Positions 7,462-30,325 of a stretch of 64,000 nt of DNA are shown here, piece by piece. Source of the DNA: an uncultured virus (IMG/VR IMGVR_UViG_3300017978_000236) (taxonomy: Duplodnaviria > Heunggongvirae > Uroviricota > Caudoviricetes > Crassvirales). Numbering within the stretch: position 1 is the first letter of the stretch; the number at the start of each line of letters is the position of its first letter. A program made the position numbers and the translations under genes. The stretch lies in IMG/VR virus record IMGVR_UViG_3300017978_000236. The stretch is one strand, 5' to 3'. Under the pieces are notes generated by a model. The model was given only the letters and a program-made list of their open reading frames with translations, was not told where the DNA came from and did no database searches.

Positions 7462-8829
7462 ATGGCTCAAGCTGTAAATTTTACAAGTAATGCTATCACT
7501 GGTGGAGCTCAATTAACTCCAGCTCCAGTTAAAGCTACATTATCTACTAACTATGTAGGTACATTTGACTTTTTGTCACATGAATTACCAGACCTTTACG
7601 AAAAAGAATTCGAAAGATTTGGAAATCGTTCTATCGCATCTTTCTTACGTTTAGTAGGTGCTGAAATGCCTTCTACTTCTGATTTGATAAAATGGAGTGA
7701 GCAAGGTCGTCTTCACGTATTTGGAACTGCTACTAAAGCAACTTCATCTACTATTACTTTTGGTGCTGCTCATAACGTACGTTTAAACCAAACTGTAGTT
7801 ATTAGTGATACTTCTAACGGAGTTACTATTAAAGCTTTAGTTACTGCTATTGATGCTGACGGTGTAACAATTACTGTTGCTCCTTATAGCGCTGCTAACT
7901 TAGCTGCTTTAAGTACTGTTTCTGGTGCTTTGAAAGTATTTGTTTACGGTTCTGAATTCAAAAAAGGAACAGGCGGAATGGCTGGTTCTTTGGAAGCTCA
8001 ATCTGACATCTTAGAAACTAACCCAATTATCATCAAAGATAAGTATGAGGTTAACGGTTCTGATATGGCTCAAGTTGGTTGGATTCAAGTTACAACTGAA
8101 AATGGTGCTGACGGATACTTATGGTATTTGAAATCTGAGCATGAAACTCGTTTACGTTTCGAAGATTACTTAGAAATGTCAATGGTTGAAGGTGAGCCTG
8201 CTGCTGCTGGTTCTGCTGTAGCTGCTGCTGGTTACAAAGGTACTAAAGGTTTGTTCTACGAAATCGCTAATAGAGGTAACGTTGGAACAGGTGCTATCAC
8301 TGATAGAACTGACTTAGAAAACATTATCAAAGTGTTGGATAAAGAAGGTGCTATTCAAGAAAACGTATTGTTTGTTAACAGAAAAACATCTTTCGAGATT
8401 GACACTGTATTAGCTGCTCAAAATAACTTCGGTTCAAGTGGAGCTTCTTACGGATTGTTTGACAACGAACAAGACATGGCTTTGAATCTTGGTTTTAAAG
8501 GATTTAACTTAGGTTATGATTTCTACAAAACTGACTGGAAATATTTGAACGATGCTACAACTAGAGGTTCTATCTCTGACATCGATGGTGTATTAGTTCC
8601 TGCTGGAACATTGACTGTTTATGACCAAGTTCTTGGTAAAAATGCTAAACGTCCATTCTTACACACTCGTTACAGAAAATCTGAAACAGAAGATAGAAAA
8701 TACAAATCTTGGATTGTAGGATCTGCTGGAGGAGCTTCAAACTCTGACATCGATGCTATGTCTGTTAACTTCTTATCTGAAAGAGCTTTAGTTGTTTTAG
8801 GTGCTAACAACTTTATGTTGTTGAAATAG
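7462..8829 (+). CDS. Major capsid protein (crAss-like HK97 fold)
   Basis: 455 aa, WSEQGRLH motif, strongly biased codons (GCT, TTC, AAC, CGT), followed by a terminator. Confidence 0.88.
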   Translation: MAQAVNFTSNAITGGAQLTPAPVKATLSTNYVGTFDFLSHELPDLYEKEFERFGNRSIASFLRLVGAEMPSTSDLIKWSEQGRLHVFGTATKATSSTITFGAAHNVRLNQTVVISDTSNGVTIKALVTAIDADGVTITVAPYSAANLAALSTVSGALKVFVYGSEFKKGTGGMAGSLEAQSDILETNPIIIKDKYEVNGSDMAQVGWIQVTTENGADGYLWYLKSEHETRLRFEDYLEMSMVEGEPAAAGSAVAAAGYKGTKGLFYEIANRGNVGTGAITDRTDLENIIKVLDKEGAIQENVLFVNRKTSFEIDTVLAAQNNFGSSGASYGLFDNEQDMALNLGFKGFNLGYDFYKTDWKYLNDATTRGSISDIDGVLVPAGTLTVYDQVLGKNAKRPFLHTRYRKSETEDRKYKSWIVGSAGGASNSDIDAMSVNFLSERALVVLGANNFMLLK

Positions 8830-8857
8830 TAGTTAATAACTTTTTATTAATATCATT

Positions 8858-8884
8858 AAGGGTAGACTTCGGTTTACCCTTTTT
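8858..8884 (+). terminator. Intrinsic terminator after the capsid gene
   Basis: AAGGGTAGAC-TTCG-GTTTACCCTT followed by a T run. Confidence 0.85.
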
Positions 8885-8934
8885 GTTTTATATTTGTACT
8901 GTAATGTTTTATTTTAAAGACTCTCATTTTTTTT

Positions 8935-8973
8935 AAACCACTAATTAGTTAATTCTTTTTAGTGGTTTTTTTT
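8935..8973 (+). terminator. Second intrinsic terminator insulating the tRNA operon
   Basis: AAACCACTAA...TTAGTGGTTT followed by a long T run. Confidence 0.7.
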
Positions 8974-9000
8974 GTTATATAAAAATAAGTTGTATATTTG
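8971..9000 (+). promoter_or_regulatory. Promoter of the leader/tRNA operon
   Basis: TTTG at 8971-8974 (-33) and TATATTTG at 8993-9000 (-7); ATG follows 4 nt later, which suggests a leaderless mRNA. Confidence 0.75.
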
Positions 9001-9004
9001 CACA

Positions 9005-9076
9005 ATGAAAAATACAAAAAACAATAGTCTACGTCACCCGCAACAAGATAATCTCTTGGGTGGAATTGGTGTGTAG
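9005..9076 (+). CDS. Attenuator leader peptide, 23 aa (MKNTKNNSLRHPQQDNLLGGIGV)
   Basis: ATG 9005 to TAG 9074-9076; consecutive CTA CGT CAC CCG CAA CAA at 9029-9046 match the downstream tRNA anticodons. Confidence 0.8.
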   Translation: MKNTKNNSLRHPQQDNLLGGIGV

Positions 9077-9131
9077 TATTGTTATAAAAATATATTTGAA
9101 CCAAAGCCATCCATATCGGGTGGCTTTTTTT
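9035..9131 (+). promoter_or_regulatory. Transcription attenuator with mutually exclusive 1:2, 2:3 and 3:4 hairpins
   Basis: 1:2 is CACCC/GGGTG plus AAGA/TCTT; 2:3 is TGGGTGG-AA-TTGGT (9057-9070) with ACCAA-AG-CCATCCA (9100-9113); 3:4 is the terminator. Confidence 0.75.
9103..9131 (+). terminator. Conditional (attenuator) terminator just before the first tRNA
   Basis: AAAGCCATCC-ATATC-GGGTGGCTTT, ending in a 7-T run. Confidence 0.85.
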
Positions 9132-9135
9132 ATTT

Positions 9136-9208
9136 CGCGTAGTGACAAAATTGGTTACGTGCCCGCCTTGGAAGCGGGAGACTGTAGGTTCGAGTCCTGC
9201 CTATGCGA
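9136..9208 (+). tRNA. tRNA-Pro(TGG)
   Basis: Acceptor CGCGTAG/CTATGCG; anticodon arm CCCGC-CTTGGAA-GCGGG; T arm GTAGG-TTCGAGT-CCTGC. Confidence 0.9.
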
Positions 9209-9213
9209 CAAAA

Positions 9214-9285
9214 TACAGTATGATGCAATGGTTAGCATACGAGATTTTGACTCTCGCTATCTAGGTTCGAGTCCTGGTACTGTAA
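9214..9285 (+). tRNA. tRNA-Gln(TTG)
   Basis: Acceptor TACAGTA/TACTGTA; anticodon arm CGAGA-TTTTGAC-TCTCG; TTCGA T loop. Confidence 0.9.
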
Positions 9286-9290
9286 CAAAT

Positions 9291-9364
9291 GGTGTTATTG
9301 CGCTTAACGGCAAGGCGGTTGGACTGTGAATCCAATTATATGAGTTCGAATCTCATATAACACC
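9291..9364 (+). tRNA. tRNA-His(GTG)
   Basis: G-1:C73 identity pair; acceptor GTGTTAT/ATAACAC; anticodon arm TTGGA-CTGTGAA-TCCAA. Confidence 0.9.
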
Positions 9365-9367
9365 CAA

Positions 9368-9442
9368 TTTAGTATAGTTCAATGGATAGAACAACAAGCT
9401 ACGAACTTGTAAATGGGAGTTCGAGTCTCTCTACTAAAACCA
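9368..9442 (+). tRNA. tRNA-Arg(ACG)
   Basis: Acceptor TTTAGTA/TACTAAA with encoded CCA; anticodon arm ACAAG-CTACGAA-CTTGT. Confidence 0.9.
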
Positions 9443-9444
9443 AT

Positions 9445-9526
9445 ACCGAAATGACGTAAAAACGAATTGGCAGAGTATCCAGTCTTAGAAACTGGGGTTT
9501 TATGGGTTCGAGTCCCATTTTCGGTA
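9445..9526 (+). tRNA. tRNA-Leu(TAG), atypical (short variable region, enlarged D region)
   Basis: Acceptor ACCGAAA/TTTCGGT; anticodon arm CCAGT-CTTAGAA-ACTGG; T arm ATGGG-TTCGAGT-CCCAT. Confidence 0.8.
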
Positions 9527-9543
9527 CAAATAAAATAAATTCG

Positions 9544-9551
9544 TACTTTTG
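9544..9551 (+). promoter_or_regulatory. Bacteroidota -7 promoter element
   Basis: TACTTTTG(CA) upstream of the ORF at 9578; restarts transcription after the tRNA cassette. Confidence 0.6.
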
Positions 9552-9577
9552 CACTTTAATTTTAATATAATTTAATT

Positions 9578-10354
9578 ATGGCAAGACCAGTTACAAAGAA
9601 GGAGCTTCCTTCTAAGAAAGAATTTGAATTTAAAGATAGAATGTATCTTTTAAAAGGTAATGCAACACCAATCTCTTTTATGTTGCGTTCTAAACATTCA
9701 CCAAACAAACCACTTTTATATTTTGATCAAGAGTATAAAGTTAATCGTGCTTTAAGATGGAGTGATAATCAAACTTCTCCATTTATCGATGAGCAAGACG
9801 GATACGCTGTATCTACTCCTATTATTTTTGAGAATGGGTCCTTGTTTGTAAAGAAAGAACAAGTAGAATTACAAAAGTTCTTATCTATTTATCACCCAGA
9901 TAATAACAATGCTTATTACGAATTTGATGCTGAAGAAAAAGCAGCTGAAGAATATGATGAATTAACAGCCAAACTTGATGCTCAGGTTACAGCTAGAGAA
10001 ATGCCTATTGAAGAATTAGAGGCTATTGCTAGAGTGGTATTGAAAGGTAAAGTTGAATTGCTTACTTCTTCTGAATTAAGAAGAGATATGTTGATTTACG
10101 CTAGTAGAAATCCAGCAGAGTTTAATTCTTTAGTTAATGATGATTCTGTTAAGTTTAGAAACATTGCTATTAGAGCTGTACAGATGGATATCATCAATGT
10201 AAGTTCTGATGGAAGAACTGTTAATTGGAGCGGAAAAGACAAAGGAAGAATTATCACTGTACCATTTGGAGAGAATGCTTATTCTGCATTAGCTGCTTTC
10301 TTCTTGACGGATGAAGGTATGGATGTATTGTCTGATATTTCAAACAAATTGTAG
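9578..10354 (+). CDS. Conserved phage protein downstream of the capsid gene (possibly structural)
   Basis: 258 aa, well-biased codons, own promoter and terminator. Confidence 0.7.
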   Translation: MARPVTKKELPSKKEFEFKDRMYLLKGNATPISFMLRSKHSPNKPLLYFDQEYKVNRALRWSDNQTSPFIDEQDGYAVSTPIIFENGSLFVKKEQVELQKFLSIYHPDNNNAYYEFDAEEKAAEEYDELTAKLDAQVTAREMPIEELEAIARVVLKGKVELLTSSELRRDMLIYASRNPAEFNSLVNDDSVKFRNIAIRAVQMDIINVSSDGRTVNWSGKDKGRIITVPFGENAYSALAAFFLTDEGMDVLSDISNKL

Positions 10355-10385
10355 TATATTGTGTTAAATAACGATCAATTATAAT

Positions 10386-10418
10386 AAAAGCGCTCTCGAA
10401 AGGGGGTGCTTTTTTTTT
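10386..10418 (+). terminator. Intrinsic terminator
   Basis: AAAAGCGCTCTC-GAAA-GGGGGTGCTTTT followed by a T run. Confidence 0.8.
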
Positions 10419-10420
10419 AT

Positions 10421-10428
10421 TAACTTTG
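10421..10428 (+). promoter_or_regulatory. Bacteroidota -7 promoter element
   Basis: TAACTTTG(CA) upstream of the tail operon. Confidence 0.65.
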
Positions 10429-10444
10429 CACAAAATAACTAATT

Positions 10445-11122
10445 ATGATGATTAACGATGTAAGAAACATAGTTGACTTTATTTTGAATAAAGAAAGCCG
10501 TGGATACATAACTCCTTTGCAGTTCAACACATTTGCTAAACAGGCACAGCAAGAGATTGTTGATGATTATTTTTATGAGTATAATAAAGCGATAGTAGGT
10601 AAAACACAAAGGGTTAACTATAAAGATACTGTAACAAGAATAAAAGAAGCTATAGATGCTTTTATAGTTGCTCCTACTACAATGACGTTTTCAGGTGGAT
10701 TTTTTAACAGTCCATCTAACTTATACACTACAATAAATATAATTTACAATGGTAAAGAGGTAGAAGAAGTTTCTAGAGAAAAACTATCTTACTTCTTAAC
10801 TAATAATGTGGCTGGACCAAGTGTATTCTATCCTGCATACGTAAAATACGAAGATAAATATAAAGTATATCCAGATACAATTGTCTCTGGTGTTCAAATA
10901 ATATACTTCAGAAACCCTAAGGATCCAAACTGGACCTACGAGATGATTGGTGGTAACGCTATATTTAATCCTTCTAAACAAGGATTCCAAGACTTAGAGA
11001 TTGGGTATGATGATAAGTTTAAAATTATATCTAAAATATTAAAGTACGCTGGTTTAAATATGAGAGAGCCTGATATTGTTGGTGCTGCTATAGCACTTGA
11101 AAACCAAGAGGACGCAAAATAA
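10445..11122 (+). CDS. Tail adaptor / ring protein
   Basis: LNKESRGYITPLQFN and YFRNPKDPNWTY motifs typical of crAss-like ring (tail tubular) proteins; position. Confidence 0.65.
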   Translation: MMINDVRNIVDFILNKESRGYITPLQFNTFAKQAQQEIVDDYFYEYNKAIVGKTQRVNYKDTVTRIKEAIDAFIVAPTTMTFSGGFFNSPSNLYTTINIIYNGKEVEEVSREKLSYFLTNNVAGPSVFYPAYVKYEDKYKVYPDTIVSGVQIIYFRNPKDPNWTYEMIGGNAIFNPSKQGFQDLEIGYDDKFKIISKILKYAGLNMREPDIVGAAIALENQEDAK

Positions 11123-29956: not shown

Positions 29957-30251
29957 ATTTTAGCACCCTCTTTCTTATCCCGCTTATGGATTTTACACCA
30001 TAAGAATTGCGGTAAGAGTAGGGTCACGTAGTCAATAAGCTACCTCTACATTAAATATCACTATTTAATAGTCACTGTTCTGACTTATTAACTACTTGCT
30101 GAGAACTCATTTGTGTTGTGGAGGTATTAAAGTCGTAAAACATACTGAGCTTTCTCAAGGCTCCAACACATCTACCATTACCGATAGTATCTTCGATAGT
30201 TTCTCAAGGTACAAGTTATGCACACTATCAGGTATTCAATGTTTAACCTTG

Positions 30252-30325
30252 TGGACCAAGTAGGACTCGAACCTACGACCTTGACATTATGAGTGTCCTG
30301 CTCTAACCAACTGAGCTATAAGTCC
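30252..30325 (-). tRNA. tRNA with CAT anticodon, probably Ile2 (lysidine type); elongator Met not excluded
   Basis: GGACTTATAGCTCAGTTGGTTAGAGC...CTCATAA...GTAGGTTCGAGTCCTAC TTGGTCCA. Confidence 0.85.

Follow-up and report, generated by a model that had tools for sequence, protein, structure and literature searches.

Multivalent leader-peptide attenuators are known from the enterobacterial amino-acid operons ilvGMEDA and thr, and the trp, his, leu and pheA leaders belong to the same class. In E. coli, the pheM leader attenuator controls the pheST operon (phenylalanyl-tRNA synthetase). Phage tRNAs, on the other hand, are commonly regarded as constitutive cargo. A full-text search of the literature for attenuation of tRNA genes by a leader of this kind yielded no earlier description.

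A transcriptome study of Flavobacterium psychrophilum, in the part of it that was accessible, describes leader-peptide attenuation ahead of amino-acid operons (PMC9723704). Host clade and mechanism class are the same as for the element reported here; the targets in that part of the study are host amino-acid operons, and tRNA genes are unmentioned there. An inducible long tRNA gene array is described for Anabaena sp. PCC 7120 (PMC8421152). Its likeness to the proposed phage element lies in supernumerary tRNAs that are silent by default and induced on impaired translation. The Anabaena array is bacterial, however, and no such mechanism is given for it ('attenuat', 'leader' and 'terminator' have 0 occurrences in the full text). 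Phage-encoded tRNAs are reported to replace host tRNAs lost to immunity and thereby to evade tRNA-targeting defences (PMC11555353, PMC11464382). The accessible portions of both papers apparently concern the action of the tRNAs and not a sensing-dependent control of their transcription.

The DNA analysed here (the window, 64,000 nucleotides) comes from a freshwater phage of the Flavobacteria type, in which five spare tRNA genes sit behind a codon-matched leader and a putative RNA switch (Table 1). A sequence-only reading had described this arrangement, and every feature it listed is present at or near the coordinates it gave. The layout is common to 14 further leaders and to three in cultured phages (Maribacter phage Panino and Cellulophaga phages Calle_1 and phi19:1), which places the element in cultured phage-host pairs as well. 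Its anatomy, statistical improbability and recurrence, the covariation of leader codons with the array and the covariation of both helices are shown by this analysis. Most likely, the element is a ribosome-mediated, multivalent leader-peptide transcription attenuator that governs the phage tRNA operon (probability about 0.78). The tRNAs are probably made only when the leader codons matching the array are decoded slowly.

Table 1. Features of the leader, the switch and the tRNA array in the window.
Feature	Position	Strand	Basis and remarks
Promoter	8971..9000	+	TTTG 8971-8974 (~-33); -7 box TATATTTG 8993-9000; read from sequence
Leader ORF	9005..9076	+	23 codons + stop; reads MKNTKNNSLRHPQQDNLLGGIGV*; predicted leaderless
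Regulatory codon run CTA CGT CAC CCG CAA CAA (Leu Arg His Pro Gln Gln)	9029..9046	+	also 5' strand of the 1:2 hairpin
Segment 2 (antiterminator 5' strand)	9057..9071	+	within the last ORF codons; -15.9 kcal/mol, z -4.7
Segment 3 (antiterminator 3' strand)	9099..9112	+	overlaps the terminator 5' arm (9103-9112)
Intrinsic terminator	9103..9134	+	stem 9103-9112 / 9118-9127; loop 9113-9117; T run 9125-9135 interrupted by A9132
tRNA-Pro (TGG)	9136..9209	+	ARAGORN; Rfam tRNA 55.1 bits
tRNA-Gln (TTG)	9214..9286	+	ARAGORN; Rfam tRNA 61.3 bits
tRNA-His (GTG)	9292..9365	+	ARAGORN; Rfam tRNA 53.8 bits
tRNA-Arg (ACG)	9368..9442	+	ARAGORN; Rfam tRNA 64.8 bits
Atypical tRNA-Leu(TAG)-like gene	9444..9527	+	ARAGORN 9461-9527
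-7 box of the next structural gene, TACTTTTG	9544..9551	+	precedes ORF 9578-10354; marks the 3' end of the cassette

As in the enterobacterial attenuators, a short promoter-proximal ORF carries consecutive regulatory codons that cover several amino acids, with rare synonymous codons among them. An intrinsic terminator is likewise combined with a mutually exclusive antiterminator, and the stop codon is sited so that a finishing ribosome would cover segment 2. The locus differs in that tRNAs would be regulated instead of biosynthetic enzymes, the product acting directly on the sensed step. It also differs in belonging to a phage of Bacteroidetes hosts, in its predicted leaderless mRNA without a Shine-Dalgarno sequence and in its weak 1:2 hairpin. 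The pheM leader is similar insofar as a leader-peptide attenuator controls a component of the decoding apparatus and not amino-acid synthesis; unlike the phage element, it is bacterial and controls the synthetase for a single amino acid. The Rfam leader families are not reached at this locus. Phe_leader (RF01859) attains 28 bits where its gathering score is 55, and Trp_leader (RF00513) 15.2 bits where it is 41; both matches cover only the terminator part.

T-box riboswitches also read the status of tRNA, and the outcome is either a terminator or an antiterminator. Unlike the element described here, they contain no ORF and recognise uncharged tRNA by direct binding, with only one specifier codon. 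A switch of this type, with leader triplets pairing directly to tRNA anticodons and without translation, would be in line with the complementarity of the triplets to the anticodons and with the terminator/antiterminator architecture. It is nevertheless extremely improbable. Neither a T-box (stem I specifier loop, conserved T-box sequence) nor any other riboswitch is found among the 21 Rfam matches at E-values up to 10. Furthermore, the triplets in every case share the frame of a start codon that lies at the predicted transcript start, and no in-frame stop codon precedes segment 2. We know of no precedent for six to eleven adjacent T-box specifiers.

The promoter that the sequence-only reading had placed ahead of the leader is present and is of the Bacteroidetes type. 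Its -7 box (TAnnTTTG) was assigned by eye and by comparison with PMC6847099; it is not a sigma-70 promoter, and a sigma-70 promoter scan detected nothing at the leader. According to the accessible part of PMC6847099, the -7 box of F. johnsoniae spans T-12 to G-5 and the start site follows 4-5 nt further on. With this geometry, +1 falls on A9005, which is the first base of the leader ATG. The spacing between the -7 box and the ATG is exactly 4 nt, with the same box, in 11 of the 18 leaders. A leaderless mRNA, opening with its AUG at +1, is predicted from this arrangement.

All five tRNA genes that had been announced behind the terminator (Pro-TGG, Gln-TTG, His-GTG, Arg-ACG and Leu-TAG) are found there, the Leu gene being atypical. 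ARAGORN assigns it a length of 67 nt and places the anticodon at position 26; its Rfam tRNA score of 27.6 bits lies below the gathering score of 29. An 8-bp acceptor pairing is possible between 9444-9451 and 9519-9526. The tRNA-Pro gene begins five bases after the terminator. No promoter fits into this gap, and the tRNAs therefore depend on read-through.

The 23-codon leader and its six-codon run at 9029-9046 are present as originally described. In the leader ORF, six of 22 codons match tRNAs of the array. All six are consecutive, and all five tRNA species are represented; the longest cognate run in the other two frames is 1. A cognate run of at least six codons occurs in 0 of 20,000 ORFs simulated from the codon frequencies of the long ORFs in the window (13,829 codons). 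The run is identical in the window and in leaders L004, L016 and L019, while the flanks vary. If decoding of A, G and U by U34 is admitted in family boxes, the run has p <0.002 in 12 of 15 leaders and is not significant in the other three (L036a, L017 and L033). The codon choice is unusual for the phage. CCG accounts for 4% of the Pro codons, CGT for 8% and CGN as a whole for 11% of the Arg codons and CTA for 10% of the Leu codons of its genes, yet CCG, CGT and CTA are used in the leader. Among leaders whose arrays contain Arg-ACG, CGN accounts for 8 of the 13 Arg codons (p 1.6e-5).

Pairing of segment 1 to the G-rich segment 2 needs C-richness, and CNN triplets are therefore favoured in one frame of this particular leader. 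The preference for CNN triplets in a C-rich strand that pairs with GGGUGG would suit a constitutive, leaky terminator, or a processing or insulating element, behind a strong promoter; ORF and codon match would then be incidental or a by-product of structure. This explanation is decidedly unlikely. It does not account for the absence of the codon run from the simulations or for the preservation of frame, start codon and stop position in 18 leaders of divergent sequence. A C-rich strand, moreover, cannot explain the leaders with UNN-type, Glu, Lys or Tyr codons.

The intrinsic terminator, originally placed at 9103-9131, is confirmed as a stem of 10 pairs (9103-9127, -14.5 kcal/mol) followed by the T run. 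Four terminator-like sites including this one are present in the region 8000-11000 (mean of shuffled sequences, 1.0), and a terminator is found in 15 of 15 leaders. In a plain MAFFT alignment, 95% of the cells of the 3:4 helix are paired and 6 of 10 pairs are altered on both sides. The 2:3 antiterminator had been claimed for 9057-9070 with 9100-9113. It is real, with slightly shifted borders (9057-9071 with 9099-9112, -15.9 kcal/mol), and only 1 of 500 shuffles is as good. The antiterminator duplex is better than shuffled sequences in 11 of 15 leaders (at most 2.6% of 500 shuffles as good), and in 7 of 11 lineages the own terminator arm is the best antiterminator partner (p 1.2e-5). On the plain MAFFT alignment, 81.8% of the cells of the 2:3 helix are paired (shuffles, 71.6%), with both sides altered in 6 of 11 pairs. 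Covariation of the antiterminator also argues against a merely leaky terminator.

The 1:2 pairing is seen in the minimum free energy fold (9030-9041 with 9060-9073), in a register that differs somewhat from the one claimed. As a duplex it is no better than shuffled sequences (0.37 in the window; 0.05 or less in 1 of 15 leaders). The alignment supports it moderately: 72% of its cells are paired (shuffles, 66%), with both sides altered in 8 of 24 pairs. The proposed translation-sensing switch with a leader of array codons passes the comparative test; its 1:2 pairing is the weak part.

Segment 2 ends 3 nt ahead of the stop codon, and 10 nt separate it from the codon run. Nascent, truncated transcripts were folded with the ribosome footprint masked, the readout being the probability of the terminator 5' arm having become paired by that stage. 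This probability is 0.84-0.86 with a ribosome on the run, 0.39 without a ribosome and 0.04 with a ribosome at the stop codon. In these models, segment 2 is hidden by a ribosome at the stop codon and stays accessible when the ribosome is on the run. Folding at equilibrium, likewise with the ribosome masked, does not discriminate, as the terminator is favoured in nearly every state; the preference would also suit a leaky terminator. If the attenuator operates as proposed, the switch must therefore be kinetic.

That the leader ORF is translated, where transcription starts, in which direction the switch acts and what triggers it physiologically are inferences. Host RNA polymerase would start at about A9005, and the transcript would open with the AUG of the leader. 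The ribosome would then have to decode six consecutive codons cognate to the five downstream tRNAs. With fast decoding, it would reach the stop codon (9074-9076) and mask segment 2, the terminator would form and transcription would end 1-8 nt ahead of tRNA-Pro. Shortage of any of the five aminoacyl-tRNAs would stall the ribosome on the run, leaving segment 2 free to pair with 9099-9112. This pairing would block the terminator and the polymerase would enter the array, from which RNase P would release the tRNAs. As the new tRNAs would relieve the stall, the circuit would act as negative feedback on codon-specific decoding capacity.

None of the 15 analysed leaders lacks the ORF, and the three cultured phages retain it too, with the order of the peptide scrambled. 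Recurrent N-terminal MK..K.N and C-terminal GG.GV motifs and the good folding of the transcript (z -4.2) could point to a functional small peptide, or to a 130-nt terminated transcript that serves as a small RNA with a target of its own, unrelated to tRNA control. Such a function is very improbable. The central residues keep their composition in scrambled order (LRHPQQ, QHLPQP, QRLQHLP and others), and it is on segment 2 that the conserved C-terminal codons fall. The dependence of the tRNAs on read-through across the 5-nt gap is likewise at odds with it.

Covariation of leader codons with the downstream anticodons had been suggested as a check in related genomes. The codon content indeed shifts with the array. 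Of the 69 amino acids served by the arrays of 14 representative leaders, 67 are found in the own leader (Fisher p 9e-12), although this and the other p-values overstate independence because the leaders are mutually related. When the arrays are permuted among the leaders, 6 of 20,000 permutations match as well. The arrays of L024, Panino and Calle_1 gain Glu-TTC and Leu-TAA, and their leaders gain GAA/GAG and TTA. L017 has additional Tyr and Ser-TGA tRNAs in the array and TAT and TCA/TCG in the leader. The array of L049 (Pro Tyr Gln Lys Lys) is preceded by a leader with the core YQTKQYQPK. L034 and L036 each have a second leader of UNN codons (FSFCLSYWLSF and LYSFYCLLSS, respectively) ahead of an array of the Tyr/Phe/Leu/Ser/Cys type. 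The sub-arrays of the relatives group by the first codon letter into CNN, UNN and ANN sets.

The match is imperfect in several leaders. L025 and L030 lack Arg codons despite an Arg tRNA, and L036a contains Leu codons although the Leu-TAG gene belongs to the preceding sub-array. In an array-type swap, the own array type is the best or tied-best scorer in only 9 of 15 leaders, which is attributed to most arrays being of one kind and to some tRNA-like genes being uncalled. Such mismatches, together with phage-rare codons (CCG, CGT, CTA) that would slow any ribosome, agree with the same attenuator hardware sensing general translation capacity or amino-acid supply through any slow ribosome, the codons just tuning its sensitivity. 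This variant is unlikely, as it gives no need for codons that track the array (Glu, Lys, Tyr, Ser and the UNN sets) across lineages.

Homologous arrays with no leader ORF had been named as evidence against the attenuator. They do occur, as a minority, in one lineage (L006-8 and L050; L006-8 were refetched from the same contigs as L018/22/26). This lineage has the same promoter and tRNAs and also a terminator, and its ORF leader has been replaced by an ORF-less one. A terminator with the same tRNAs and no ORF is also what a leaky terminator would lead one to expect.

If the attenuator reading is correct, transcription of the tRNAs would be coupled to a direct read-out of the decoding of their own codons, as a self-limiting feedback. 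It would carry leader-peptide attenuation from amino-acid metabolism over to the tRNA pool and into viruses, and would supply natural modular sensors for codon-specific decoding. The sequence-only reading had suggested a counter-defence purpose, with replacement tRNAs made after an anticodon-nuclease attack, which corresponds to the tRNA role given in the accessible parts of PMC11555353 and PMC11464382. Each sub-array with its own-codon leader might then be a codon-class-specific decoding sensor in an inducible sense-and-repair counter-defence. This reading is rather doubtful, and plain feedback between supply and demand fits equally well. If the sensor reading applies, an anticodon nuclease or a loss of position-37 modification that hits one tRNA class would induce just the matching set. 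The attenuator would make the debated role of phage tRNAs (codon supply or counter-defence) testable.

Eight of 20 metagenome loci (L031, L032, L035, L038, L039, L041, L044 and L048) were set aside as apparent chance 18-mer matches with coding-like or repeat sequence upstream. In L046, the tRNA-Pro word follows another tRNA-like sequence and no leader is present. Tenacibaculum phage pT24 (hit H11) was rejected as a tRNA leader, its similarity extending no further than the promoter and the first part of an ordinary CDS. No comparable leader was found at the tRNA-Met of the window (30251-30325, minus strand).

The public runs consist of contigs, which neither show nor exclude transcription. One contig of RNA library X15 is identical to 9225-9449, another, from a relative, ends at 8892 and no contig covers 8928-9214. 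Run X17 contributes just a 37-nt piece with a loose end, and X16 gave no match.

A second perfect -7 box is located at 9091-9098; it could initiate transcripts at the terminator stem, which counts against control by the leader. In relatives without tRNAs, the upstream unit is joined straight to the equivalent of the promoter of the next structural gene.

The tRNA array is most likely controlled by a leader-peptide attenuator (probability about 0.8), and comparative evidence, namely the match between leader codons and arrays and the covariation of two RNA helices, supports this reading well. The window stems from a Flavobacteria-type phage and has a GC content of 32.5%. Its 455-aa protein (7462–8826) matches phrog_13704, a family of virion structural proteins (E 7e-103). 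In a tblastn search this protein hit 85 records of phages, none reaching 60% identity: 68 Flavobacterium, 15 Cellulophaga, one Maribacter and one unnamed. Two structural genes flank the cassette of leader and tRNA genes.

Features of the leader and tRNA cassette in the window
Feature	Coordinates	Strand	Basis
TTTG	8971–8974	+	read from sequence
Bacteroidetes -7 box TATATTTG	8993–9000	+	read from sequence
Leader ORF, MKNTKNNSLRHPQQDNLLGGIGV and stop	9005–9076	+	ORF call
Codon run CTA CGT CAC CCG CAA CAA	9029–9046	+	in frame of leader ORF
Terminator hairpin, 10 pairs, then T run	9103–9127	+	terminator scan
tRNA-Pro(TGG)	9136–9209	+	ARAGORN, Rfam
tRNA-Gln(TTG)	9214–9286	+	ARAGORN, Rfam
tRNA-His(GTG)	9292–9365	+	ARAGORN, Rfam
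tRNA-Arg(ACG)	9368–9442	+	ARAGORN, Rfam
tRNA-Leu(TAG)	9461–9527	+	ARAGORN; below Rfam gathering score

The ORF, ARAGORN and terminator calls agree with the anatomy proposed in the sequence-only reading, i.e. a leader codon run, a terminator and five matching tRNAs. In the window's own ORFs of at least 200 aa (13,829 codons), array-cognate codons account for 7% under strict wobble and for 9.5% once U34 is allowed to read U as well in family boxes. Six of the 22 leader codons are cognate, all six are adjacent and all five tRNA species are represented. The remaining two frames have a longest cognate run of 1, and none of 20,000 simulated ORFs contained a run of at least six. In phage genes, 90% of Arg codons are AGA/AGG and 59% of Leu codons are TTA. 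By contrast, the leader picks CGT for Arg (8% in phage genes) and CTA for Leu (10%), which belong to boxes read by the array, and this synonymous choice is telling. As phage genes seldom contain the array codons, the tRNAs are no obvious codon-usage supplement; this rarity leaves room for the counter-defence purpose proposed in the sequence-only reading.

Rfam supports the Pro, Gln, His and Arg tRNAs with 54–65 bits; tRNA-Leu(TAG) reaches 27.6 bits (gathering score 29). The latter is atypical (9444–9527): the ARAGORN call is 67 nt long and has its anticodon at position 26. An acceptor pairing of 8 bp is possible, which would give 83 nt with an odd D region and without a long variable arm. Similar calls of 66–67 nt are found in the related loci L004, L010, L030, L034 and L036. 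In run X15, an RNA library from freshwater, one contig has the same sequence as 9225–9449, across three tRNAs, which is compatible with a polycistronic precursor, although contigs cannot show transcription. A lone tRNA-Met(CAT) at 30251–30325 (minus strand) has a -7-box-like motif upstream and neither a codon-run leader nor a preceding terminator.

A sigma-70 scan detects no promoter at the leader. According to a study on F. johnsoniae (PMC6847099), the -7 box spans T-12 to G-5, with 4 or 5 nt between box and start site in most promoters. By this geometry, +1 falls on A9005, with which the leader ATG begins, and the leader mRNA is therefore predicted to be leaderless. In F. psychrophilum, only 5.5% of mRNAs are of this class (PMC9723704). 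In 11 of 18 leaders, a box with five or six of six positions matched lies exactly 4 nt before the start codon. The other seven have spacings of 1, 3, 5, 9, 9, 12 and 13 nt, the two shortest after poor or uncertain boxes. The T run of the terminator ends five bases before tRNA-Pro; there is no space for a promoter in between, and thus the array depends on read-through.

A perfect TAnnTTTG box at 9091–9098 lies between leader stop codon and terminator, with a predicted start at ~9103, where the terminator stem begins. Transcripts from this box could contain the terminator without the segment that pairs with its 5′ arm. In most relatives five or fewer of its six positions are matched. Directly upstream of the leader, a second small unit (8889–8975) comprises a -7 box (8889–8896), a conserved CTCTCAT with a T run and a terminator hairpin (8935–8968, z -3.65). 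All close relatives have it, even those that lack tRNAs, and its hairpin arms vary while complementarity is kept. The unit could represent a small RNA or serve as back-up terminator behind the capsid-like gene.

If the leader is matched to the array, its codons in each relative should be those read by that relative's array. Of the loci listed below, those with L numbers are viral or metagenomic; a and b denote the first and second leader of one locus.

tRNA arrays and leaders of related loci
Locus	Array	Leader
L025, L029, L034a	Pro Gln His Leu-TAG Arg	cores QHLPQP, QHLPQP, QHLPQR
L024	Pro Glu Gln His Leu-TAG Leu-TAA Arg	LLHTRLELQPEQH
Panino	as L024	QRLHQELEQP
Calle_1	as L024, Leu-TAG not called	RLLHQEPLEQLRLP
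L017	adds Tyr-GTA and Ser-TGA	includes TAT, TCA, TCG
L049	Pro Tyr Gln, HNH-like ORF, Lys Lys	YQTKQYQPK
L034, second leader	Tyr Phe Leu-TAA Ser Ser Cys	MKKFSFCLSYWLSF...
L036, second leader	Ser Leu Leu Cys Ser	MKKTTLYSFYCLLSS...

The predicted covariation of leader codons with arrays is borne out. Among 14 lineage representatives, the array amino acid occurs in the leader peptide for 67 of 69 pairs of leader and amino acid, the two misses being Arg in L025 and L030. The association has an odds ratio of 25 (Fisher p 9e-12; the leaders are mutually homologous, so this and all other p-values overstate independence). With arrays reassigned at random among the leaders, a match as good arose in 6 of 20,000 permutations. 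In leaders with Arg-ACG arrays, 8 of 13 Arg codons are CGN, compared with 11% in the background (nominal p 1.6e-5). The L024 leader has 12 cognate codons out of 25, a run of nine and all seven species covered. Residue order is scrambled among lineages and composition is kept, which points to selection on codon content and not on the peptide. Against the reading, the run statistic is non-significant in three of 15 leaders (L036a, L017 and L033), and the leader's own array type is best or tied-best in only nine of 15 when array types are swapped. Likewise, L036a contains Leu codons although its Leu-TAG gene is located in the preceding sub-array. Pairing with segment 2 requires a C-rich codon-run strand (segment 1), and this requirement by itself favours CNN triplets in the window leader; as a complete explanation it fails on the UNN, Glu, Lys and Tyr leaders.

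The antiterminator (2:3) pairs segment 2 (9057–9071) with segment 3 (9099–9112; -15.9 kcal/mol, z -4.7, one of 500 shuffles as good). In leaders of 22–25 codons, segment 2 lies within the last ORF codons. The 2:3 duplex is better than shuffles (≤2.6% as good) in 11 of 15 leaders, the exceptions being L034a, L036a, L034b and L036b. The terminator (3:4) is present in all 15, with -10.8 to -17.5 kcal/mol. Segment 2 co-changes with the terminator arm (GGGUGG/CCAUCC, GGGAAG/CUUCUC, GGAGGG/CCUUCC), and in seven of 11 lineages the own arm is the best partner of the leader's upstream region (nominal p 1.2e-5). On a plain MAFFT alignment (A1) of 10 leaders, 81.8% of the 2:3 cells are paired (shuffled 71.6 ± 2.3%, 0/500 as high; slid partners 35–58%) and six of 11 pairs are changed on both sides. 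For 3:4 the values are 95% (shuffled 82.9%) and six of 10. Of the three alternative pairings claimed from sequence, these two hold. The anti-antiterminator hairpin (1:2), taken from the window MFE fold (z -4.2), is only moderately supported on the alignment (72%, shuffled 66%; eight of 24 pairs changed on both sides) and is not better than shuffles in the duplex test (window 0.37).

In masked-ribosome folding, the terminator is favoured at equilibrium at nearly every ribosome position; any switch is therefore kinetic, as in classical attenuators. For a nascent transcript that ends at the terminator loop, pairing of the terminator 5′ arm has already occurred with a probability of 0.84–0.86 with the ribosome on the codon run, 0.39 without ribosome and 0.04 with the ribosome at the stop codon. 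Anatomy and comparison suggest the following course. During fast decoding the ribosome would reach the stop codon and mask segment 2, so that the terminator forms. Slow decoding at any of the six codons would leave segment 2 free, the antiterminator would form and polymerase would enter the array; the tRNAs made would then lift the stall.

Judged by its sequence, the element would work in the same way as the multivalent leader-peptide attenuators of amino-acid operons, all of whose testable hallmarks it shows apart from a firm 1:2 hairpin. By sequence the element belongs to none of the Rfam leader families, and it is not a T-box. A full-text literature search gave no account of tRNA genes under an attenuator or a leader peptide, and the paper on a stress-induced Anabaena tRNA array (PMC8421152) does not contain "attenuat", "leader" or "terminator".

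A search with the neighbouring 258-aa protein gave 15 loci. The array is present in five (L004 and L010 with five tRNAs, L006–8 with four called) and absent in ten, including L001–3, L005, L009 and L011 at 84–97% protein identity. Thus, the promoter-leader-terminator-tRNA unit is a cassette between conserved flanks. Compared with window 8976–9543, the flanks of these six loci are joined cleanly with the whole cassette missing, so that the cassette behaves as a mobile module.

An exact 18-mer of tRNA-Pro found 15 viral and 20 metagenome loci. A short ORF and a terminator lie directly 5′ of tRNA-Pro in 12 viral loci, and both are present in 10 metagenome loci. Homologous arrays lacking a leader ORF, which the sequence-only reading had named as counting against it, do exist: three viral loci (L018, L022 and L026, on the same contigs as L006–8) and one metagenome locus (L050) have the same promoter and tRNAs, a terminator and an unrelated RNA of ~70 nt without start codon as leader. 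This ORF-less leader (L006:2468–2546, also in L007, L008, L018, L022, L026 and L050) has its own terminator (MFE -22.9 kcal/mol, z -2.1). In metagenome locus L046 the tRNA-Pro word sits behind another tRNA-like sequence; eight metagenome loci looked like chance 18-mer matches and were set aside. The element also occurs in three cultured phages, Maribacter phage Panino (leader annotated as hypothetical CDS0063) and Cellulophaga phages Calle_1 and phi19:1, and attenuator control of the array is open to testing in cultured phage-host pairs.

In L034:1–1901 and L036:879–1854, tRNA sub-arrays are sorted by first codon letter: CNN (Pro Gln His Arg-ACG Leu-TAG), UNN (Tyr Phe Leu-TAA Ser-TGA Cys, plus Ser-GCT) and ANN (Thr Arg-TCT Asn Met). 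The CNN set and the UNN set have separate leaders. These classes coincide with position-37 modification classes. At L049:265–672 and L049:1448–1800, a partial GOLLD RNA match just 5′ of the array (78 bits; gathering score 150) and an HNH-like ORF between tRNA-Gln and the two tRNA-Lys genes are found. Directly after the array of L034, a phage-like contig, a permuted tmRNA is matched at 1959–2228 (53.5 bits, gathering score 47).
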